DNA of 64,000 nucleotides from positions 457 to 64,456 of the forward strand of contig JAOABV010000001.1 of NCBI GenBank assembly GCA_026418155.1, read 5' to 3'. A program made the translations under genes and the position numbers. The first letter of the stretch is position 1. Each line of letters opens with the position of its first letter. Shown piece by piece: positions 6,454 to 64,000 of this stretch. The notes beneath the pieces are model-generated. The model made no database searches. It worked only from the letters and a program-made list of their open reading frames with translations, and was not told the DNA's origin. The stretch is from a candidate division WOR-3 bacterium. GTDB taxonomy: Bacteria > Hydrothermota > Tepidihabitantia > Tepidihabitantales > CAIPLT01.

Positions 6454-6566
6454 AACCCAGATTTCATTCGACTTTTTCTTGCTCGTTTTTCCATACGAAT
6501 TTTTCTTGCTTGTTTTTCTATACGAAAAGCCGACTTTGCTATTCTGAGCGCATGCAATGATATGAT

Positions 6567-21300: not shown

Positions 21301-21692
21301 CTATTTTTATGAAATGTCAAGAACAAAAGAACCTTTTGACAAGATTTTTTGTAGGCCTATTAGGAAGGCGTTTTCAAGATTTCTATGTTAAGGGGCTAGG
21401 GTGGGGCTAACCCGTTTTTAGCATTGGGAAAGGCAATATCTGACTTATATGCGGTAGAGAAGGTCGCTTATCAGGTAGAAAACGCTTAAAAAGATTATTC
21501 GTTGTCTTAGATATATTTTATCTTAGATCCTATTGTCTTGTAGGATGTAATCAATATAGTAAATATTTGCCCTGATAAGTGTCTTTGCTTCTTATCTTGT
21601 TAATAATCCAACGAGATTTAAGGCGTTATAATTTATCAGGAATTATAATAATTTTTACTAAAGGTTGTGTGCTAAGAAAGAAATTAAAACAT

Positions 21693-22090
21693 ATGAGAAA
21701 AACTTTTGTCTAAATCTTTAATTTAGACTACACTTCCTTCATCTCAATCGTGTTTTCTTCTTATCATATAGTTACCCAATATTAACAAAATAAGGTATTA
21801 TAAATATATCAATTGAAGTGTATGAGAAAACTCGTTGTCTAAATCTTTAATTTAGACCTCACTTCCTTCATCTCAATCGTGTTTTCTTCTTATCATATAT
21901 TTACTCAGTGTTAATAAAATAAGATATTATAAATATACCAATTGAGGCTTATGTGAAAACTCGTTATCTAAATCTTTAACTTAGATTAGACATCACTGAT
22001 TCCGACCGTGTTTTCTTCTTATTGTTCTTGTTATCCTTTACTGTTGACAGATAAGATATTATAGTTATAAATTATAAATATAAAGTTAAT
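21693..22090. repeat. 3 x ~129-bp degenerate tandem array, each unit carrying a 21-bp palindrome GTCTAAATctttaATTTAGAC (third copy degenerate)
   Basis: Palindromes at 21707-21727, 21836-21856, 21986-22006; units share atgagaaaac...gtgttttcttcttat... Confidence 0.8.
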
Positions 22091-26246: not shown

Positions 26247-26527
<281 letters not shown>

Positions 26528-27715: not shown

Positions 27716-27975
27716 ATATTTTATTTAAGGTTGTTTTTTGATACTTTTTACCTTTTGGGAATATCTCATACATTTTTTGTTCATTTTTTCCGATTAGAAA
27801 TTTGCCTTCTTAAGGTTGCCTTTTGATTCTTTCACCTTTTGGGAGTATCTCATACACTTTTCTGTTCTGTTCACTTTTTTCCGATTAGAAATTGTTTTCT
27901 TAAGGTTGTTTTTTAATTCTTTCCCCTTCTTGAAGTATCTCGTAGGCTTTTTTCTGTTCACCTTTTTCCCGGTAA
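27716..27975. repeat. 3 x ~93-bp tandem repeat; the innermost copy is the coding 3' end of the TPR gene (minus strand), the outer two are decayed copies with stops
   Basis: cttaaggttg.tttt.a..ctttc.cc.t.t.g.agtatctc.ta...tttt.tgttca at 27716, 27807, 27900. Confidence 0.8.
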
Positions 27976-29534: not shown

Positions 29535-29725
29535 TATCTTTAAAGTCAACTATATTTAACATATTATGTCTAAATTTACCCAGAATATTATATGCTACCA
29601 TAAGCAGACACATCTTTATCTTTAACATACCAAGTCTATATTTAACCAGAACATATACATTACCATTAAAAGAGCATCATTTATCTTTAACATAGCAAGT
29701 CTAAATTTATTCAAAGTATTTATGC
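29535..29725. repeat. dispersed ~70-bp repeat family, locus D (two tandem partial copies)
   Basis: ctttaacata[cg]caagtcta[ta]atttaa.. at 29621 and 29684. Confidence 0.65.
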
Positions 29726-29740
29726 TATCTTTTTATTTAC

Positions 29741-31471: not shown

Positions 31472-31777
31472 ATGCAAAATATACCCCTTATCAATTATAA
31501 AGAATTAAGAAAAATCAACCCACAAAACGCCAGTCAATCTGTAATCGAATATCTTAAATCCACCGGTAATAATATCTCTCATACCGCAAAAGCATTCGGC
31601 ATCAACCGCTCTGTAGTCTATGATATTATTGATAAATTCCGCCAAGGCAACTTAAAAGACCGTCCTAAAACACCTCTTCATCAACTAAGAAAAACAGATC
31701 CGGAAATCGAAACTAAAGTAGTCGCAATGAAAACTAAAATCCATCTCGGACCAAAAAGACTCTCCAGATATCTGTAA
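31472..31777 (+). CDS. IS transposase N-terminal HTH segment (orfA)
   Basis: HTH ...ISHTAKAFGINRSVVYDIIDKFRQ... Confidence 0.6.
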   Translation: MQNIPLINYKELRKINPQNASQSVIEYLKSTGNNISHTAKAFGINRSVVYDIIDKFRQGNLKDRPKTPLHQLRKTDPEIETKVVAMKTKIHLGPKRLSRYL

Positions 31778-32564
31778 TGTCTCCGCCAGGACAATCCGAC
31801 ACATCTTGCGAAGACATCAAGCCCAAATTAAAGAACTTATCCGTTCGAAGAAAAGAAAGAAGGAGAAAAGAGAATGTGTTGACTGGTATTCAGCCAAACC
31901 TTTTGAGATTGTCCAAATTGATGTCAAACACATCCGTGACCAAAAAGCCTTAACCATCGAGCAGATTATCCATCTTGATACTTTTAAGATACCTAATTAT
32001 CAGTGGAGTGCGTTGGATGTGAACTCGCGTTTTAAGTTGATTGCTTATTCGCAAGAGAAGTCCTGGATCAACGGGTTATTTTTTTATTTTTGGGTGATAT
32101 CGTGGTTACGCTCGCATAGGGTGAAGTGTCAGATTATCTTTACGGTGGATAATGGTGAAGAATTTGGTGGTCGGTCGTGGTTAAAAGTAAAAGAGTTGCG
32201 GAAATTACTGATTGGTTTTGGTTGTCGGTTGGTTCAGAATCACAAAGGGCATCCGGAAGAGAGCGCCCATTTAGAACGGTCGCATCGGACCGATGATGAA
32301 GAGTTCTATATTCCGAGAGTGTTTAAAATCAAATCCGAAGCCGAGCTTCTGACTGAAGGGTTAAGATACAATTACTATTACAACAATTATCGGGAGCATT
32401 CAGCACTTGACTTTAAGACACCATTTGAGTATCTTAAAGAGCAGATGCCGGATATTGATGATAATATTCGTAAGGTTGTACCGATAATGTTAGATAAAGT
32501 AGCGGTAGAATTAGGTCCTTGGAGTGGATACCATGTCTTGGCGCCGCACCGAAAATGTATGTAG
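31731..32564 (+). pseudogene. IS transposase DDE (rve integrase-core) segment (orfB), in the +1 frame relative to orfA; frameshifted or disrupted
   Basis: D (IVQIDVKH), D (FTVDNGEEF), E (LERSHRTDDEEFY), ...YNNYREHSALDFKTP; frames overlap 31731-31777 around CCAAAAAG (31751-31758). Confidence 0.55.
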
Positions 32565-34193: not shown

Positions 34194-34751
34194 ATGATTA
34201 CACCTAATGATTTTCGACCTGGACTTTTAGTTCGATATCGCGATGACATTTGGGAAATAGTCGAATACCAACGCGTAAAAATTGCCCAACGCCGTGCCTT
34301 TGTCCGAACTACCTTTCGCCACCTACTAACCGGCAAGACAATTGAAGAAAATCTCTCTTCCGAAGAAAAACTGGAAGAACTACAAGTCGAGCGCAGAAAA
34401 TGCCAGTATCTATATAACGATGGCGAAAACTATCACTTTATGGAACTTGAGCACTACGACCAATTTGCCCTATCAAAAGAGATTTTAGGTGATAAGGTTC
34501 TCTATCTTACAGAAAACACCATCGTCGACATTCTATATGTTGAAGCCAAACCCCTAACAATAGAAGTACCCAACTTTGTAGAACTAACCGTGGTCGAAAC
34601 CGAACCTGACTACAAAGGCGATACCGCAACCGGTGGTGGCAAACCCGCAAAATTAGAAACCGGTCTTGTAATATCAGTCCCTTTCTTTATTAAAGTTGGT
34701 GATAAAATCCGAATCGATACCAGGTCTAATTCATATGTGGAAAGAGTCTAA
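34194..34751 (+). CDS. efp: elongation factor P
   Basis: 185 aa KOW/OB architecture; ...KPGKG.AF.R.. Confidence 0.9.
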   Translation: MITPNDFRPGLLVRYRDDIWEIVEYQRVKIAQRRAFVRTTFRHLLTGKTIEENLSSEEKLEELQVERRKCQYLYNDGENYHFMELEHYDQFALSKEILGDKVLYLTENTIVDILYVEAKPLTIEVPNFVELTVVETEPDYKGDTATGGGKPAKLETGLVISVPFFIKVGDKIRIDTRSNSYVERV

Positions 34752-34902
34752 AGAATTTTACACCTAAAGATAATCTAACTCTTATGGAGAAAGAGTCTAA
34801 AGATTTTGCAACTAAAGGCAATCTAATTATTATTAAGAAAGAATCTAAAGATTTGTGTCTGAAAGAGTCTAAAAAATTTGCAATTAAAGGTAATTGTTAT
34901 CA
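34738..34902 (+). repeat. 4 decaying tandem copies (~40-50 bp) of the efp 3' end including its stop codon
   Basis: gtggaaagagtctaaagaatttta... / ggagaaagagtctaaagattttgca... / aaagaatctaaagatttgtg... / aaagagtctaaaaaatttgca... Confidence 0.8.
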
Positions 34903-39949: not shown

Positions 39950-40260
39950 AAATTGCTTACTGCCTGACTTTTATGCTGCAAAAAGATAAATACCTTATAA
40001 TTCAAACGAGCAAAACCATATTACTATCAATTAAAATAAAAATTGCTGACTGATTATATGCTGTTATTAATATCAAGTAAAATAGAAAATTGCTTCCAAG
40101 TATGATTGCAAACTATTCTCAAGGACTGATGAAAAGAACTCTTAAGAGAAAATCGCTTTCAAATATGATTGCGGTAGAATCTTAAAAATGGATAAAGAGA
40201 AAATTACTTACAAATACGATTACAGAACAATCTCAAAGATGGATAAAAAGAATTCTCTCG
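39935..40260 (+). repeat. 5-6 decaying ~35-50-bp tandem units spanning the stop of the 39293 gene and the start of nnr
   Basis: aaaatgaaaattgcttactgcctgac... / aaaataaaaattgctgactgatta... / aaatagaaaattgcttccaagtatgattgc... / gagaaaatcgctttcaaatatgattgcgg... / gagaaaattacttacaaatacgattacag... Confidence 0.75.
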
Positions 40261-52039: not shown

Positions 52040-52306
52040 TAAATAAAATCTGTTTTAAGGTTTAACAAGGTAGAGCAATTAAAAATATATAATTTTAATA
52101 ATATTATTAAGATAAAAACTATTATTATTTATTATGTGGATAACTAAAGAATACCTAAAATACATAATAAACATATATAAACTTAATCCACATCCGATAA
52201 AATCTTTTTTGTTATTTGTGGATAAGAAAGATCAAACAGACAAATTTACTTTCTTTGTAGTGGATAATTACTACATTTTCAACAAGTTTTCCACAACTTA
52301 TCCACC
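52040..52306. other. oriC part 1: DnaA-box cluster downstream of dnaA
   Basis: TGTGGATAA 52136-44, AATCCACA 52185-92, TGTGGATAA 52218-26, AGTGGATAA 52259-67, TTTTCCACA 52287-95, TTATCCACC 52298-306. Confidence 0.7.
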
Positions 52307-53665
52307 GTTTATTAACATTAGAACCTTTTGAATTTTTTGGGCAATATCCGGGTTTGATTTTTTAAGTTCTGTTATTTTTTCAATAGCGTGAATGACTGTA
52401 GAATGGTCCTTACCACCAAAAATTGACCCGATTTCTTTAAGCGACATTCCTAATAAGGTGCGTAAAAGATACATTGCAACCTGCCTGCCTAAAGCCAAAT
52501 TCGCAGTCCGCTCTTTAGATTGCAACTGTTCAACAGTAACCCCAAATTGTTTCGCAACTACATCAATGATTTTCAATGGCTTAGGTTTTTCATAGGTGAT
52601 ATGTAGGTCTGAAAGAACCTGTTTACAGACATCTAAGGTTAGCGGAGTATTGGTTAAGGATGCGTAGCCGGCTAAGCGAATCAAACAGCCTTCTAATTCC
52701 CGGATATTGGTTTTTATGTTTTCTGCGATAAAGTAGATGATTTCCGGGTCAATGTTTATCGATTCAGTTTTGGCTTTATTATTTAGAATGGCAATCCTTG
52801 TTTCTAAATCTGGTGGTTTTAAGTCGCAGACTAAACCTGACAATAACCGTGAAACTAAACGCTCTTCTAAGGTAGGAATTTCTCGAGGCGGTCGGTCTGA
52901 GGTGAAAACAATCTGTTTACCCATTCCCTGAAGGTAATTAAAGAGATGAAAGACTTCTTCTTGTAACCGTTCTTTGCCTTTAAGATAGTGAATATCATCA
53001 ATTAATAATAAATCTAAGTTGCGGTATTTATTATTAAAGGCGAATTGGTTTCTTTCTTGGATTGATTGGATAAGGTCTAAAAAGAAGAGTTCTGCGGGCG
53101 TGTAGCAAATCTTTGCTTGGGGATTGTTATTTTTGACATAATTGCCAATAGCGTGCAAAAGGTGAGTTTTACCTAATCCCACTCCGCCATAGATAAATAG
53201 TGGATTATAAGTTTTGGCAGGTGCTGTTGCTACTGCTTTACAAGCAGCATAAGCAAATCGGTTCGATTCTCCGATAATAAAATTATCAAAGGTATATCGC
53301 TCAATAAGTCGTGATTGATTGGTAAGTCGATTTGAGGTCTGATTATGAGTAGAGATATGTTTGGCTGCTGTAGTATTATTGGAATAAGTATTTTCTGTGT
53401 TGGTCGATTCAGGCGAAGACTCTTCAGGTATTACTGTGAAATTTATCTTTAGATTTAATTGAGTAAGAACCTGAGATAAAGCATTTGAATAATATTCAGA
53501 AATCCATTCAATAAAGAATTGATTTGGAGCTCCAACTTCTAAAGAACCGTCATCAAGATTAAGTGGTCTTAAAGGACGAAACCAAGCAGTAATCGCATCT
53601 TGATTAATTAATTCACTCAGACCGGAAATAATTTTTGACCAGACTTGCTCTTTCAATTCGCTCAT
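52298..53665 (-). CDS. dnaA: chromosomal replication initiator DnaA
   Basis: AAA+ ...GGVGLGKTHLLHAIGN..., ...LLIDDIH..., C-terminal HTH ...SKERTANLALGRQVAMYL... Confidence 0.95.
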   Translation of the reverse strand: MSELKEQVWSKIISGLSELINQDAITAWFRPLRPLNLDDGSLEVGAPNQFFIEWISEYYSNALSQVLTQLNLKINFTVIPEESSPESTNTENTYSNNTTAAKHISTHNQTSNRLTNQSRLIERYTFDNFIIGESNRFAYAACKAVATAPAKTYNPLFIYGGVGLGKTHLLHAIGNYVKNNNPQAKICYTPAELFFLDLIQSIQERNQFAFNNKYRNLDLLLIDDIHYLKGKERLQEEVFHLFNYLQGMGKQIVFTSDRPPREIPTLEERLVSRLLSGLVCDLKPPDLETRIAILNNKAKTESINIDPEIIYFIAENIKTNIRELEGCLIRLAGYASLTNTPLTLDVCKQVLSDLHITYEKPKPLKIIDVVAKQFGVTVEQLQSKERTANLALGRQVAMYLLRTLLGMSLKEIGSIFGGKDHSTVIHAIEKITELKKSNPDIAQKIQKVLMLINGG

Positions 53666-54100
53666 CGACTACTTATCCACTTCATAAAAAGTTTTCCACA
53701 AAGTTTTCCACAAAACTTAATTTTATAAATGTTTGTAAAATAAAAACTTACCATAAACAAGCTAATTTTTCCACAAATCTATAATAATAATTTTTAATAA
53801 ATTAACTAATTCTCGTCAACAACTTTCTGTATCGCGCAAATGCTCGCATCAATTTTATTAAAGTTTAGAGTTAAGTCAAGATATTTTTTAATTTTGGGAG
53901 TAAAAAATTTTTTCTGTTGCCAAAACCTATTTTGGGAATTGAAAGAATAAATTCGGTTGTTTAATTTTGTCTCTATTTTTTCAATTAATTTTGTGTCTAT
54001 TTTTTCAATTGGTTCTACTTGGGAAAAGAATATATATGACTTTTCTCTGCTCTCATTTTAAGATATTTAATTAAACCTTGTCTGATTAATCGAGAATTTT
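53666..54100. other. oriC part 2: DnaA boxes plus AT-rich unwinding region upstream of dnaA
   Basis: TTATCCACT 53672-80, TTTTCCACA at 53692, 53704, 53767; >85% AT stretch 53740-53830. Confidence 0.65.
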
Positions 54101-56864: not shown

Positions 56865-58121
56865 TTAGGTTTTAAGTGGTTTTTTTTGGGCTGCAGGAAA
56901 CAAGACATTGTTTAATATTAGTCGATAGCCAGGAGAGTTTTTATGCAATTCTAAATTAGTCTGAGGGTCGCCAATGCGATGTGCGAAATCTTCAGGGTCA
57001 TGACCACCTAAAAAAGTAAATGTGCCTTTACCAAATTTTCCGTGGATGTATTTAACTTCTTCGGTATTAGGAACTTCACCTAATATCAAGACATTTTTCT
57101 TTATTTTATCTCGCCGGAATCCGCAGTTTTGTCCCAGAAATTCTTTGACCAAAGCAACATGGTTTTGAACCAGCATTGTTGGAACTGGGTCATACTTAGC
57201 CGAAAAATCGAAGAGCGAGAAGTAGACATTTGGTCCCCGAGCCGAAGATTCAATATAGGTATCAATATCAGAATGTTCATAGACATAAGGGTCAATGACG
57301 ACAGTGAAATTTTCAAATGCCAAACAGTTAGCATAATTGAGTTTAGACATATAATTAGGGTCAACCGGGTCGCCATCAAACTCCTTAGGAACGATGTCTG
57401 TATTTTCTGCGGCCAAAGCGATATCAGGAGTATCAGTCGAAGAACACATTGCAAAGACCATCCCACCATCTTCTATATACTTTTTAATCTCTTTTACTAC
57501 TGCCAATTTTAATTTAGATACTTTTTTGAATCCCAATGACTTAGCCATAGCAGTATTCAATATAACATCTTCTTGATACCAGTCGGCATGTCCGTGTCCT
57601 GCGAGAAATTTGCCATATTGTCCAGTAAAGTCTTCGTGGTGTAGGTGAAGCCAGTCGTATTCTTTTAATTTGCCTTGGAGCACTTCTTTATCCCAGATGC
57701 GGTCATAAGGTATCTTGGCGTATTCTAAGGCTAGTCTTACTGCGTCGTCCCAGGGCTCGTGATTTGGTGGCACATAGACCGCAATTTTGGGTGCTTTTTC
57801 TAAAAGCATTGCGTCCATATTCTCTTTTTCAATTGTCTGTCTAATGGTTATTTCTTGGCTGGGAGAGATTACTTCATAACGAACACCCCGAAGATTGCAA
57901 AGTTTTCTAATTGCTGGATTGTCAGCCATCAGAAACGAACCGCCTCGATAATTCAATAACCACTCAACATTTTCACCTGCTAAAAGACAATTATACGCAA
58001 TTCCATAAGCCATTAAATGGTCGGTTTGAGTCAAGTCCATAGGAATCAATATCTTAGCATGGGTAAAAGTAAAAGAAAGAAAGGTTGAGAAAAGAAGGAT
58101 TAATTTAGTGGTTCTGTGCAT
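56865..58121 (-). CDS. hypothetical secreted protein (signal peptide; His-rich HLHHEDF...GHGHADWY segment)
   Basis: ORF + signal peptide MHRTTKLILLFSTFLSFTFTHA. Confidence 0.55.
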   Translation of the reverse strand: MHRTTKLILLFSTFLSFTFTHAKILIPMDLTQTDHLMAYGIAYNCLLAGENVEWLLNYRGGSFLMADNPAIRKLCNLRGVRYEVISPSQEITIRQTIEKENMDAMLLEKAPKIAVYVPPNHEPWDDAVRLALEYAKIPYDRIWDKEVLQGKLKEYDWLHLHHEDFTGQYGKFLAGHGHADWYQEDVILNTAMAKSLGFKKVSKLKLAVVKEIKKYIEDGGMVFAMCSSTDTPDIALAAENTDIVPKEFDGDPVDPNYMSKLNYANCLAFENFTVVIDPYVYEHSDIDTYIESSARGPNVYFSLFDFSAKYDPVPTMLVQNHVALVKEFLGQNCGFRRDKIKKNVLILGEVPNTEEVKYIHGKFGKGTFTFLGGHDPEDFAHRIGDPQTNLELHKNSPGYRLILNNVLFPAAQKKPLKT

Positions 58122-58325
58122 ATTTTAGCTTGTGTCTCATTATTATAGTAATTATAGTAATTGTTTTGTTGGTTCTGTTTGTATTTTAGCCTTGTGTTTA
58201 TTCTCATTGTATTGTTTTGTTGGTTCTGTTTATATTTTAGTCTTGTGTCACATTATTGTAGTAATTGTTTTTATTGGTTCTGTTTGTATTTTAGCCTTGT
58301 GTTTCATTATCTGTAGTAACATTTA
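58108..58325. repeat. 3.5 x ~60-bp tandem repeat that includes the start-codon region of the 56865..58121 gene (copies have lost the ATG)
   Basis: ggttctgt(gca/ttg)tattttagc.ttgtgt.t.att... x4; ORF 58132..58329 is a repeat artefact. Confidence 0.8.
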
Positions 58326-58404
58326 TTAATTCTATTCGTATCTTATCTCAATTTTATTCGTATCTTATTACAGCATTAATCGTCCTACCGATTAATTATT
58401 AGTG

Positions 58405-59394
58405 CTATTCGTATACAATCCGTGTGCCGATAGTGTTGTTGGTTAATGCAGTGGCAATATTGCTCGGGTTGGTAATAATACCAAATCGAGAACGGTCCTT
58501 TTCAATAAACTTAATTAATGCTTGGATTTTCGGCTTCATACTGCCTTCAGCAAAATGTCCTTGATTTAAATATTCAATTGCTTGCTTTAAGTTTATGGTA
58601 TTTAATGGGATTTGATTGTTGGTATTGAAGTTGAGATAGACTTTATCAATGCTTGTTGATATGATGAGGCAGTTAGCGTCGATTAAATCGGCTAAGAGTG
58701 CTGAAGTTAGGTCTTTATCAATTACTGCGGGTATTGGTTTAAGGTGATTGTTTTCTTGAATTACCGGAATACCGCCGCCACCAGCAGCGATTACGATATG
58801 GTTGTCTTCGATTAAAGATTTTATAATGTTGATTTCAACAATTGATTTTGGTTTGGGAGATGCGACCATTCGGCGAAAACCTCTGCCAGCGTCTTCTTTC
58901 ATAATCCAGTTTCGTTCTGCTTGTAATGCAAAGGCTTCTTTTTGGGAATAAAACGGACCAACGGGTTTTGTGTAATTAGAGAAACCGGGGTCATCTTTAT
59001 CTACTAAGACTTGAGTAATAACAGTGACAATATTAAAAGGACATTTGCATTTAGTTGATTCGTTTTTCAGATTGGGTTGAATCATATCCTTGTGTTTAGC
59101 CAATTCGTTTTTCAGGCTGAGTTGAATCATATAACCAATTTCTGCCTGAGTTAGCGCCGTAGCAATTTCTAAAGGAATTTCTGGTAAGTGGTTGCGGGTT
59201 AAATAAGAACGAATTAATGCAGTTCCTACTTGGGGTCCATTGCCATGGGTTATGACTACCTGATTGTGATGACAGACAATTTCAGCAATATTGGCACAGG
59301 TTTCCTGCACAGTTTCAAACTGGTCAAAGAAAGACGGTGGTTTATTACCATTGCGGAGCAAAGAATTACCGCCGATAGCAATTACAATGCGCAT
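58405..59394 (-). CDS. arcC: carbamate kinase family protein
   Basis: MRIVIAIGGNSLL... amino-acid-kinase fold, ~310-330 aa; ...VITHGNGPQVG..., ...IAAGGGGIPV... Confidence 0.75.
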   Translation of the reverse strand: MRIVIAIGGNSLLRNGNKPPSFFDQFETVQETCANIAEIVCHHNQVVITHGNGPQVGTALIRSYLTRNHLPEIPLEIATALTQAEIGYMIQLSLKNELAKHKDMIQPNLKNESTKCKCPFNIVTVITQVLVDKDDPGFSNYTKPVGPFYSQKEAFALQAERNWIMKEDAGRGFRRMVASPKPKSIVEINIIKSLIEDNHIVIAAGGGGIPVIQENNHLKPIPAVIDKDLTSALLADLIDANCLIISTSIDKVYLNFNTNNQIPLNTINLKQAIEYLNQGHFAEGSMKPKIQALIKFIEKDRSRFGIITNPSNIATALTNNTIGTRIVYE

Positions 59395-59697: not shown

Positions 59698-59890
59698 TCC
59701 GAACTTTAATGTAATTGATAACTTTTTCTTCAACCTATGATGTTCTTATGCCGAACTTTTCCCTATAATGTAATTGATACCTTTTTTCTTCAACCTATAA
59801 TGTTCTTATGCATAACTTTTCCCTATAATGTAATTGACAACTCTTTTCTTCAACCTATAATGTTCTTATGCTGAAACTTAATAATCAGGA
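59698..59890 (+). repeat. 3 x ~60-bp tandem repeat, each unit with a TATAAT -10-like hexamer; the last unit contains the selA ATG
   Basis: (aatgtaattga.a.ct.tttcttcaacctat.atgttcttatgc..aactttt ccctat) x3; cttatgccgaac / cttatgcataac / cttATGctgaaac. Confidence 0.8.
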
Positions 59891-61274
59891 AGTGTTAAAA
59901 AACATTCCATCGGTTGATAAGATTCTTAACTGGCAGGATGTTAAGGTGTTTGAAAAGAAAATTAAGACTTCTTATTTAACTGAGATTGTTCGGTATAAGA
60001 CTGATGAGTTTAGACAAAAACTACTTGGAGGTGAAAGACTTAGTCCTGACGATTTGAAACAGATGGTCGTCGCAGAACTAAAATTCCTGACCGAACGATA
60101 TTTTACTTATGCGATTAATGCCTTAGGAGTTATTCTCCATACTGGATTGGGCCGGGCTCCTTTTGCTCAAGGCATTGACAAGATTCTGCAAGATGTTAGT
60201 CAGGCTTATGCTCGGTTACAGATTGATGACGAAGGTAAACGCGATGACCGGTATAAAAAGATTAGTAAACTGCTTAGAGTCTTAACAGGTTGTGAAGCAG
60301 GAATTATCGTTAATAATAATGCCGGGGCGACGCTTTTGGTCCTATCCGCAATCGCCAAAGGAAAAGAGGTTGTGGTCTCCCGCGGTCAATTAATTGAAAT
60401 TGGTGGTTCTTTTCGCCTGCCTGAAATTATGGCACAATCTGGTTGTATTCTCCGGGAAGTCGGCACAACTAACCGCACACATCTTAAAGATTATGAACAA
60501 GTTATCAATGAGAACACCGGCGCAATTTTAAGAGTTCATCAATCTAATTATCGGATTATCGGTTTTACCTCTGAGGTCCCTTTAGCCGAATTGGTGTCTT
60601 TGGGAAAAAAGTATCAGGTTCCGGTAATTGATGATTTGGGTAGTGGTGCTTTAATTGATTTCTCTAAATACGGTTTACCCAAAGAGCCAATGGCACAAGA
60701 AAGTATTGCGCTTGGTGCCGATATTGTCTGTTTTAGCGGTGATAAATTGATTGGCGGACCACAATGCGGTATCATTATTGGCAAAAAAGCCTATCTGGAA
60801 AAGATTAAAAAGCATCCTTTAACTCGGGCACTAAGGTGTGATAAATTAACTAACGCGGTTTTAGAAGCAACCTTACAAAAGTTTTTACTACCAGAAGAAG
60901 ATTTGATTAATGAACATACTGTGTATCAACTTATGCTGAAACCATTAAATGAAATCAAAAGACAGGCGAATTGGTTCGCACGGAAATTAAAAAAGGAACA
61001 CAGTTCTCAATTGACCTGTGAAGTAAAACCATCACATAGTGAAATTGGTGGTGGTTCGTTAAGCACCGAACAACTACCAACTTTTGTAGTCATAATAAAA
61101 CCGAACAATCTCTCATCCCAAGATTTAGCCAAAAGACTTCGGCAATACCAACCACCAATCTTTGGTCGGATTCACGAAGATTCATTAATCCTTGATTTTA
61201 GAACCGTGCTGAAAGGCGAAGAAAAAATAATTTTACAAGCATTGCAAGAAAACTTAAAGAGTAATGATAAATAA
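59868..61274 (+). CDS. selA: L-seryl-tRNA(Sec) selenium transferase
   Basis: PLP lysine context ...CFSGDKLIGGPQCGIIIGKK... (cf. E. coli FSGDKLLGGPQAGIIVGKK); 468 aa. Confidence 0.9.
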   Translation: MLKLNNQEVLKNIPSVDKILNWQDVKVFEKKIKTSYLTEIVRYKTDEFRQKLLGGERLSPDDLKQMVVAELKFLTERYFTYAINALGVILHTGLGRAPFAQGIDKILQDVSQAYARLQIDDEGKRDDRYKKISKLLRVLTGCEAGIIVNNNAGATLLVLSAIAKGKEVVVSRGQLIEIGGSFRLPEIMAQSGCILREVGTTNRTHLKDYEQVINENTGAILRVHQSNYRIIGFTSEVPLAELVSLGKKYQVPVIDDLGSGALIDFSKYGLPKEPMAQESIALGADIVCFSGDKLIGGPQCGIIIGKKAYLEKIKKHPLTRALRCDKLTNAVLEATLQKFLLPEEDLINEHTVYQLMLKPLNEIKRQANWFARKLKKEHSSQLTCEVKPSHSEIGGGSLSTEQLPTFVVIIKPNNLSSQDLAKRLRQYQPPIFGRIHEDSLILDFRTVLKGEEKIILQALQENLKSNDK

Positions 61275-61372
61275 TACGATAAATACTTTACAAGCAATGC
61301 AAGAAATCTTAAAGAGCAAAAATAAATAATACGATAAGCATTGCAAATACGCAAAATGTAAATATTATCTAA
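61228..61372 (+). repeat. 2.5 decaying ~55-bp tandem copies of the selA 3' end including its stop codon
   Basis: ttttacaagcattgcaagaaaacttaaagagtaatgataaataatacgataaatac / tttacaagcaatgcaagaaatcttaaagagcaaaaataaataatacgataagc / attgcaaatacgcaaaatg. Confidence 0.8.
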
Positions 61373-61379
61373 ATTTTCC

Positions 61380-63392
61380 ATGTCTAATACTAAAAAACGG
61401 CATATAGTTATTGGCACTGCTGGTCATATTGACCATGGTAAAAGTGCTTTAATCAAAGCATTAACCGGAGTTGACCCTGACAGATTAAAAGAAGAAAAAG
61501 AACGGGGGATGACCACAGATTTAGGATTCGTTTTTTATGGTGATAATGCCACGCTCATCGATGTCCCGGGTCATGAAAAATTTGTCCGTCATATGGTTGC
61601 TGGTGCGTCAACGATAGATATCGTGCTATTGGTGATTGCTGCTGATGATGGCATTATGCCACAAACCCGAGAACACCTTGAGATATTGAAACTTTTAGGT
61701 ATTAAAAAGGGTGTTGTCGTCATCACCAAAAAAGATTTAGTCAGCACAGAACGCTTACAAATTGTTATTGAAGAAATTAAAAATTTAGTTAAAGACTCTT
61801 TTCTAAAAAAAGCGCCCGTAATTGCAGTTTCTAATGTCACAAAAGAAGGAATCAATGAATTAAAGAGCCTGCTGGATAGATTGATTGCAGAAACCGAAAG
61901 TAAAATTGACCAAGGTATTTTTCGCATGCCCATTGACCGTTGTTTTACCATCAAAGGTTTTGGTACAGTTGTTGCTGGCACAGTCTTGTCCGGGAAAATA
62001 AAAGTAGGCGATGAAGTTGAAGTTCTTCCCCAAAAGCGAAAAGTCAAAATTAGAAGAATTGAAGTCCATAATAAACCAGTAGATGAAGTCAGCACAGGTT
62101 TTCGGGCGGCAATCAATCTTATTGGTGTGGAAAAAGACGAGATTAACCGCGGGGATGTCTTAAGCCAAATCGGTTTTTTCCATCCTTCACTATTTCTCAA
62201 TGCGTCGCTCTATCTTCTGCCTAATGCCGAAAGACCATTAAAAAACTTTGAACGAGTAAGAATTCATTTAGGCACTAAAGAAGTTTTAGGTCGGGTAGTT
62301 ATTTTAGGTAAAAAAGAGATTTCAGCAAAACTACCCCTTTCCGAGAAAACAAATACTCAAGGCACGGATATGACAAAAAGGATACTTTTACCTAAAGAAA
62401 AGGCATTGGTTCAGTTTCGATTGGAAGAACCAGTAGTAACAAATATCAATGACCGATATGTCATCCGAACCTATTCGCCCCAAACGACCATCGGTGGCGG
62501 TATAATTCTTGACCCTAAAGCAACTAAAGTCAAAGGATATGACGAAGAACTGCTAACTCATTTAGCCCGCACCGAATCAGGTGAACCTATTGATTTAGTT
62601 GAAGAAGATTTATTATGCAATTTTCAAATAGCCAAAAAGCCGACAGAAATTGCTCAAGATATAAATCTACCGGTTAACGAAGTTATAGAATTATTAAAAC
62701 AACTCGTGCAACAGAAAAAAGTGCTCTGTTTAGATGAAAATAGAGCGTTGAATTACCATTCCCAAAACTTATTTTATCATTCCCAAAATGCCGAAAAATT
62801 GCAACAACAAATAATTGAGAAAATAAAAGAATACCATCAGCAAAACCCCACAAGCATTGGCATAACTCCATTAGCATTATTAAAGACAGTGAGTGTCGGA
62901 TTAGATAAAATACTTTTAGATTGGGCAATAGACCAATTACAGACCCAAGGAAAAATTCAGGTCTCTTCAGAACAGAAAATTCGTCTATCCGATTTCAAAA
63001 TGGTGGTGGAAAAAAATATTGCCGAATATGTCGAAAAAATTGAAAAACTACTCTTATCTTGTGGATATGAACCGCTCACATTTAGTGAAATAAAAAGCAA
63101 AATTAGCGGAAAAGAGACCGAAATAAAACAAAGTTATCAATATCTACTTGACCAAAAGATTTTAATAAACATTGGCGAAGGGCTAGTCTTACATCAAAAA
63201 TATATAAAACAAGCCGAAATAATATTGGTTGATTTCTTAAAGAAAAATGGTTCAATCCGAGTATCCCAATTTAGAGATTTACTCAAAGCCAGCCGAAGAA
63301 CCGCTTTGCCACTACTAATCTTTTTTGACAACAAAGGCATCACAATCCGAAAAGATGATATAAGAGTGCTGTCAAAAAAATTTAAAGATTAA
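61380..63392 (+). CDS. selB: selenocysteine-specific translation elongation factor SelB
   Basis: N-terminal GTPase ...[38 protein letters not shown]...; three to four C-terminal winged-helix domains; 670 aa. Confidence 0.9.
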
Positions 63393-63547
63393 ATTCATAC
63401 AGAGAGACTAAAAATATTAAGTCTTGTAACAGCCGATGGCGACAGTAAAACTAAACCCAGAAATATTTTTGCTTAATTTTTATGATCTGGTTTTTGATTT
63501 CAATTAAAATGAAGAGGACCGCTATTTAATTTTTATATTAAATCAAT

Positions 63548-63641
63548 GGCGGAGGCGTGTAGGAATCGAACCTACCGTTCTTCTTTCGAAGAACACCTGG
63601 ATTTGAAGTCCAGTAGGCACACCAGCACCTATCCGCCTCCA
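63548..63641 (-). tRNA. selC: tRNA-Sec (anticodon UCA), selC
   Basis: Reverse complement GGAGGCGG-ATAGGTGCTGGTGTGCCTA-CTGGACTTCAAATCCAG-GTGTTCTTCGAAAGAAGAACG-GTAGGTTCGATTCCTAC-ACGCCTCC-G-CCA; anticodon arm identical to E. coli selC; 8-nt acceptor strands, long variable arm, encoded CCA. Confidence 0.85.
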
Positions 63642-63809
63642 ATAGTTCCATATAAAATATAATAAAATTTTAGAGAATACGCAAGTAAAATTAAAAAAGG
63701 CAGTGTCAAGCTTTTAATGTGGTTTCTCTTTACTTCCATAAAGACTTGTCTTATATTGTTGGTTTAGCATATTGACAGGAAGGTTTAATTTTTTATATAA
63801 TTAATTTAT

Positions 63810-64000
63810 GGAAGGATAGGTCGGGCGGTCGCTCTAATTCTTACGATTGTAAGAGTTAGGGAGGAAAGTCCGAACTCATCCAGACAAAGTGCTTGCTAAC
63901 CGCAAGACATGGTTTTTGTGAAAAAACCATGATGGAAAGTGTCACAGAAACAATACCGCCCAACACGGGTACGCCCGAATTGGACTATCCCGCTTTGGGT
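63810..64000 (+). ncRNA. rnpB: RNase P RNA (bacterial type A), 5' portion; runs off the window end
   Basis: P4 strand GGGAGGAAAGUCCGAACUC (cf. GAGGAAAGUCCGGGCUCC), P3 hairpin CUUACGAUUGUAAG, upstream TTGACA-17/18-TATAAT at 63772-63801. Confidence 0.7.

Follow-up and report, generated by a model that had tools for sequence, protein, structure and literature searches.

A putative selenocysteine-decoding locus, selA-selB with a convergent tRNA-Sec gene, in a candidate division WOR-3 bacterium

Does the end of a 64,000-nucleotide (nt) stretch of DNA from a candidate division WOR-3 bacterium carry the genes for reading UGA as selenocysteine (Sec), and are these genes at work or left over from a lost pathway? 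The whole stretch is called the window here, and all coordinates refer to it, with the strand as given. Four features were found at its end, all matching curated models far above chance:

59868-61274, plus strand: selA, L-seryl-tRNA(Sec) selenium transferase, 468 amino acids (aa)
61380-63392, plus strand: selB, selenocysteine-specific elongation factor, 670 aa
63547-63640, minus strand: selC, the gene for tRNA-Sec(UCA), 94 nt including the encoded CCA, found with ARAGORN and Rfam model RF01852
63813-64000, plus strand: rnpB, class-A RNase P RNA (5′ 40% of the gene), found with Rfam model RF00010 and cut by the window end

Judged from the sequence, the locus is very probably the canonical bacterial Sec-decoding gene set of a WOR-3 bacterium, consisting of a selA-selB operon and a convergent tRNA-Sec gene. 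Related loci were numbered L001, L002 and so on, L001 and L002 being the closest relatives. The relatives found for SelB were overwhelmingly from candidate division WOR-3/Stahlbacteria, with a top identity of 72% (L001 and L002).

The adjacent selA and selB genes proposed on the plus strand in a preliminary description of this DNA were both recovered with curated profiles. SelA scored 542.9 bits with TIGR00474 (cut-off 267.9), residues 10-461 covering profile positions 1-455, and matched Pfam SelA with E = 2.7e-143. Over its whole length it aligned with Aquifex aeolicus SelA (3W1H, residues 4-450; E = 7e-109); the N-terminal domain was included in this alignment, the protein being full-length with its tRNA-binding domain. 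The PLP-lysine (pyridoxal phosphate) motif SGDKL was kept (fsgdkliggpq, compared with gsgdkllggpq in A. aeolicus). SelB scored 337.9 bits with TIGR00475 (cut-off 242.25) over residues 9-663 and carried the Pfam domains GTP_EFTU, GTP_EFTU_D2, Beta-barrel_SelB and SelB winged-helix, the C-terminal wings being matched by SelB-wing_3 (residues 619-664, E = 1.3e-15) and SelB-wing_2 (E = 8.7e-05). Among solved structures it was matched best by E. coli SelB (5LZB, E = 2.7e-69), with the winged-helix region aligned; in the same alignment, the G1, G3 and G4 GTPase motifs were intact and TKKD was visible.

SelA was approximately 81-83% identical to its counterparts in L001 and L002. Ratios of nonsynonymous to synonymous substitution rates (dN/dS), calculated against the L001 and L002 orthologues, were 0.08-0.10 for selA and 0.08-0.12 for selB, which indicates strong purifying selection on both genes. 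With open reading frames (ORFs) intact, catalytic motifs kept and purifying selection acting, the sel genes are apparently working.

A single tRNA was found by ARAGORN in the 64 kb, tRNA-SeC with anticodon tca. It had been described as a 94-nt tRNA on the minus strand at 63548-63641; strand and length stand, and the coordinates were one base off. A covariance model calling it a non-Sec type had been named as grounds for rejection. The tRNA-Sec model RF01852 was instead the top match within the Rfam tRNA clan, at 79.2 bits (E = 1.2e-14), 32 bits above the gathering score of 47. Written as RNA, with structural elements separated by hyphens, the molecule reads:

GGAGGCGG-AU-AGGUGC-UGGU-GUGCCU-A-CUGGA-CUUCAAA-UCCAG-G-UGUUCUUCGAAAGAAGAACG-GUAGG-UUCGAUU-CCUAC-ACGCCUCC-G-CCA

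Reading of the sequence along with the ARAGORN output confirmed the UCA anticodon, acceptor strands of 8 nt each and the long variable arm noted earlier. The T stem is 5 bp long, the 6-bp D stem closes a loop of 4 nt, and the variable arm (20 nt) is formed by a 7-bp stem with a GAAA loop. The discriminator is G73 and CCA is encoded, giving the 3′ end CCUCC-G-CCA. The 17-nt anticodon arm CUGGACUUCAAAUCCAG was compared with that of E. coli K-12 selC and was identical, as had been claimed.

The cloverleaf was tested on an alignment of 17 WOR-3 tRNA-Sec sequences. There, 95.6% of cells were paired, compared with 44-57% when the partners were slid, and compensatory double changes were found at seven pairs, mainly in the anticodon and variable stems. 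The window tRNA was 97% identical to its counterpart in L001 and L083, with all stems kept.

Several observations weigh against a complete and functional set. Of the 17 aligned tRNAs, 15 have G-A as their eighth acceptor pair and the other two have U-A. A hexamer scan gave no clear consensus promoter directly upstream of the window tRNA-Sec gene: TTGACA is present approximately 60 nt upstream, a good -10 box is absent, and in relatives TTGAC(A/T) and a -10-like box precede the tRNA by 10-20 nt. In agreement with the preliminary description, selD was not found in the 64-kb window by tblastn with E. coli SelD, and Pfam scans of all window ORFs of at least 100 aa gave no AIRS/SelD domains. Likewise, when the 64 kb were scanned for ORFs broken by one in-frame TGA, all candidates were shadow frames of real genes or intergenic frames of low complexity, so that the earlier statement that no UGA-interrupted selenoprotein ORF is present also held. 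Completeness of the pathway in the host is therefore a prediction made from its relatives.

The tRNA observations could point to something other than a true tRNA-Sec, namely a Sec-like UGA recoder of the tRNA-ReC/selC* type, an allo-tRNA or a plain suppressor. The UCA anticodon would suit such a molecule, as would the eighth acceptor pair, which is not of the Watson-Crick type, and look-alike tRNAs occur in other phyla (PMC13582414). The chance that this is the case is nonetheless minimal. In addition to the best clan match being tRNA-Sec, the bacterial layout is kept (8-nt acceptor strands, 5-bp T stem, 6-bp D stem and 4-nt D loop) and selA and selB are the neighbours of the tRNA in more than 20 genomes. 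tRNA-ReC, a look-alike that reads UGA as Cys, is defined by U73 (PMC13582414); the G73 discriminator thus excludes selC as a tRNA-ReC or selC*. By the 8/5 criterion of a 13-bp helix, the acceptor/T helix comprises 12 Watson-Crick or wobble pairs and one non-standard pair, and bacterial tRNA-Sec variants with 12 standard acceptor/T pairs have already been described in surveys (PMC5330540).

The remaining observations would suit a relic locus, in which selD and the selenoproteins were lost and selA, selB and selC are decaying leftovers: the 64 kb hold neither selD nor a selenoprotein gene, no clear tRNA promoter was found, and the sel block, bordered by recent tandem duplications, is inverted when compared with L001 and L002. 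Decay is nevertheless very unlikely, given two intact ORFs with their catalytic motifs, dN/dS of approximately 0.1, a tRNA that keeps every stem at 97% identity, and a perfect, conserved promoter 5′ of selA. A further argument comes from relatives with a Sec-containing selD, whose SelB identity to the window protein is 58-68%.

Using tblastn with E. coli SelD, selD was found in 29 related loci. In every selD-bearing relative examined, a TGA occupied the codon aligned with the catalytic Cys17 of E. coli SelD, giving the motif CAGUASK; SelD is itself a predicted selenoprotein in this clade. Loci with such a Sec-selD are L004, L013 and more than 20 others, L039-L053 among them, and in a more distant group selD directly follows selB (selA-selB-selD). 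The consensus for a selenocysteine insertion sequence (SECIS) in the selD genes of relatives is a short 4-bp GC stem with almost no covariation, which is weak evidence.

Following an all-against-all comparison of the read-through candidates (81 sequences), two real families remained, SelD and thioredoxin/Omp28-like UxxC proteins; neither is present in the window. The UxxC proteins are approximately 350 aa long, with a signal peptide, an RVVVxEE...UxxC thioredoxin/Omp28/DUF1223-like domain and a type IX secretion system (T9SS) sorting tail, and would be extracellular or outer-membrane selenoproteins. Their genes often lie beside selC, directly so at L003 4226-5275 and L005 15604-16656. In the two copies examined (L003 and L005), a 7-bp SECIS-like hairpin with a GUG loop was found 17-39 nt after the UGA. 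Further copies were located at L005 16767-17801, L023 7833-8879 and 14651-15673, and L013 1244-3178, and also in L027, L028 and L031. From the Sec-containing selD and the secreted UxxC selenoproteins near the sel genes of relatives, the Sec trait is predicted to be active in the clade. On the reading of the locus as a canonical Sec-decoding set, the selD and selenoprotein genes of the host genome must be located outside the window.

The tRNA gene is convergent with selA-selB, as proposed, and in the window it is separated from selB by a 154-nt spacer without overlap. Among related loci the order selA then selB, directly adjacent, is universal, and a reversed tRNA-Sec gene lies 3′ of selB in 22 of the 24 WOR-3 loci with a detected tRNA-Sec. 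In ten WOR-3 relatives the selB ORF extends 16 nt into the reversed tRNA-Sec gene; a selB stop codon TAG 16 nt inside the tRNA gene was recorded for L018, L022, L024, L025, L028, L031, L032, L033 and L035, and in L003 the gap between the two genes is just 3 nt. A co-transcribed selABC operon was considered and rejected, since selC is on the minus strand and convergent with selA and selB on the plus strand, and is therefore not co-transcribed with them.

A location of selC near selAB is the usual bacterial arrangement (Santesmasses et al. 2017, PMC5330540), and a reversed selC at or overlapping the selB end has been reported for Shewanella, Ferrimonas and Photobacterium (Mukai 2021, PMC8124441), with a hypothesis of antisense regulation for the reversed selC of Shewanella (PMC8124441). 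By analogy, the conserved convergence could be a regulatory device, in which the levels of SelB and tRNA-Sec would be kept in balance by transcriptional collision or by antisense transcription. This idea is based on the conservation, on the 16-nt overlaps in ten relatives and on the lack of a predicted terminator in the spacer, where no terminator-like fold was better than in shuffled sequence on either strand. Regulatory interference between selB and selC is unlikely. If true, the triplicated leaderless-type selA promoter could tune the balance of SelB and tRNA-Sec in this lineage.

That promoter is part of one of two tandem duplications in the operon, both detected with Tandem Repeats Finder (TRF):

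59707-59875, plus strand: 60-nt tandem repeat, 2.8 copies (TRF period 60, 90% matches; repeat family D2)
59834-59861, plus strand: consensus promoter TTGACA-16-TATAAT, 12/12 hexamer matches
61232-61337, plus strand: 55-nt tandem duplication of the selA 3′ end, 1.9 copies (TRF period 55, 90% matches; repeat family D4)

The 60-nt repeat lies directly 5′ of selA and overlaps its start. Every copy bears a sigma-70-like promoter, which is followed in copies 1 and 2 by a 6-codon mini-ORF. The -10 box of the selA promoter ends 6 nt before the selA ATG. This spacing suggests that the selA-selB mRNA is leaderless or nearly so. Promoter and 6-nt spacing are the same in L002; in L001 the promoter is kept and 18 nt are inserted before the ATG. 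The 105-nt spacer between selA and selB is made mostly by the 55-nt duplication, the corresponding spacer in L002 being only 3 nt.

The rnpB gene had been reported as part of the locus, beginning approximately 170 bp beyond the tRNA. Its position was borne out, the gene starting 173 nt after tRNA-Sec; its membership was not. The local RF00010 match (79.1 bits, E = 3.1e-24) covers model positions 1-149 of 367, its 3′ end being truncated, and it includes the conserved GAGGAAAGUCCG region of RNase P RNA. The score stays under the gathering score of 100 for the full length, since the window breaks off within the gene and holds its first 188 nt only. Upstream lies the following element:

63772-63801, plus strand: rnpB promoter TTGACA-18-TATAAT, 12/12 hexamer matches, ending 11 nt before the RNA 5′ end

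The short distance to the tRNA could be taken to mean that rnpB belongs with selA, selB and selC in a single functional module, in which RNase P RNA would couple tRNA-Sec processing to the Sec machinery. This is highly improbable. In L002, the closest relative with long context, rnpB is upstream of selA, on its other side and approximately 7 kb distant; L083 and six other related loci gave no rnpB. As the adjacency is not conserved in relatives, a module that includes rnpB was rejected. The gene is also served by a promoter of its own, and its transcription runs away from the tRNA. RNase P processes the 5′ ends of all tRNAs, tRNA-Sec included, and thus serves every tRNA. The gene is an independently transcribed housekeeping neighbour near the origin, outside the Sec system, and its adjacency is incidental.

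On the other side of selA, the genes for replication initiation and for a hydrogenase maturation factor were located:

52298-53665, minus strand: dnaA
54111-56639, minus strand: hypF, coding for a complete five-domain HypF (Pfam and curated protein hidden Markov models), 3.2 kb from selA

Clusters of DnaA boxes flank dnaA (six sites at 52135-52306 and four at 53673-53775, with at most one mismatch each) and the cumulative GC-skew minimum is at approximately 52 kb. The replication origin is therefore probably near dnaA, which would place the sel locus approximately 6 kb from it.

The proximity of hypF, given earlier as 3 kb, was correct; it had been taken to fit a [NiFeSe] hydrogenase or other selenoenzymes encoded elsewhere. 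No hydrogenase gene, and no hyp gene other than hypF, was found in the window, and the partners of hypF in relatives are carbamate kinase, a conserved unknown protein and dnaA rather than the sel genes as such. Gene order in L001 and L002 runs selA, selB, selC (reversed), carbamate kinase, a 418-aa protein and hypF, followed in L002 by dnaA, and all of these genes except selC share the same strand. Compared with this order, the selA-selB-selC block of the window is inverted with respect to the block of carbamate kinase, 418-aa protein, hypF and dnaA. The inversion junctions coincide with tandem-repeat-rich intergenic regions at 58151-58319 and 59707-59875.

Carbamate kinase and then the 418-aa protein are encoded at 56865-59394 on the minus strand. 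This gene pair is conserved, overlapping (translationally coupled) in L084 and L085, and is followed by hypF-dnaA in L084 and by an ARMT1-like gene and hypC in L085, with hycI nearby. The 418-aa protein has no Pfam or NCBIfam match, is named 'asparagine synthetase B' at NCBI, where a WOR-3 protein is 100% identical to it, and has more than 8000 homologues. It is 90-91% identical in L001 and L002, exceeding SelA, carbamate kinase (approximately 81%) and HypF. Cys226 and several His residues are invariant, and an N-terminal hydrophobic helix is present. Its AlphaFold model (predicted local distance difference test, pLDDT, 70.8) weakly resembles class-I glutamine-amidotransferase-like folds (STM3548 and the GH42 middle domain), and the protein may be a helper in carbamoyl-phosphate supply or hydrogenase maturation.

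Diverged short tandem duplications (24-130 nt, 74-96% matches) are unusually dense throughout the window. Arrays were recorded at 2426-2592, 6465-6526, 21692-22022, 27725-27969, 29551-29727, 34725-34854, 40144-40252, 53961-54010, 58151-58319, 59045-59132, 59707-59875 and 61232-61337. Many of them span gene starts or ends, and one lies in frame within the carbamate kinase gene. Approximately 11 arrays reach a TRF score of at least 80 in the 64 kb, compared with none in L002 and L006 (22 kb each) and one, at the contig end, in L001. This richness looks like a lineage-specific tendency. The local oddities of the sel locus (the triplicated promoter, the duplicated selA 3′ end and the inversion) are small lineage-specific rearrangements and no new system.

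Two features further away were also recorded. A long signal recognition particle (SRP) RNA of 273 nt at 26249-26521 (minus strand) was matched best by the archaeal model RF01857 (98.4 bits; gathering score 96.5); the SRP RNA of this bacterial host appears to be a long form, fitted better by the Rfam archaeal model than by the other SRP models. At 31472-32564 (plus strand), two adjacent ORFs with HTH_28 and integrase-core (rve_3) domains are probably an insertion sequence.

The mechanism of the sel locus was carried over from what is established for E. coli and Aquifex. In short, tRNA-Sec would be charged with serine by seryl-tRNA synthetase, and the PLP enzyme SelA would turn Ser-tRNA-Sec into Sec-tRNA-Sec, using selenophosphate made by SelD as the donor. 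SelB-GTP would then bind both Sec-tRNA-Sec and a SECIS hairpin just 3′ of an in-frame UGA, delivering the tRNA to the ribosome.

With this locus, the present WOR-3 lineage, in a poorly studied uncultured phylum, has genes for reading UGA as Sec. Where UGA is read in this way, gene callers will truncate selenoprotein genes unless recoding is considered; in relatives, the genes at risk are selD and those of the secreted UxxC thioredoxin-like proteins. A literature search gave no work dealing specifically with selenocysteine in WOR-3. Beyond correct annotation the significance is small, the system being textbook: it is of a kind already known, and every component is canonical and would be named by a standard annotation pipeline.

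Compared with the systems of E. coli and Aquifex, SelA is alike in its full-length alignment with the A. aeolicus enzyme, including the PLP lysine, and SelB is alike in combining an EF-Tu-like GTPase core with C-terminal winged helices, although it is longer than E. coli SelB (670 versus 614 aa). The tRNA shares with E. coli selC the 8-nt acceptor strands, 5-bp T stem, 6-bp D stem, long variable arm, G73 and anticodon arm, and differs in its eighth acceptor pair (G-A versus C-G in E. coli). selC is clustered with selAB in the window, whereas it is a separate locus in E. coli K-12, and selD is not nearby. The rnpB fragment resembles class-A RNase P RNA (RF00010) over the 5′ 149 model positions and differs in being limited to 188 nt, with a score below the gathering score. 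As in the selABC and selCAB clusters (PMC5330540), the tRNA-Sec gene lies immediately beside selA and selB, but here and across WOR-3 it is oppositely oriented, converging on selB from the other strand. In this respect the locus resembles those of Shewanella, Ferrimonas and Photobacterium (PMC8124441), where selC is antisense and convergent at the selB 3′ end. The likeness extends to overlap in ten WOR-3 relatives, whereas the genes in the window are 154 nt apart. The WOR-3 lineage, of the Fibrobacteres-Chlorobi-Bacteroidetes (FCB) group, is unrelated to the Gammaproteobacteria with a reversed selC.

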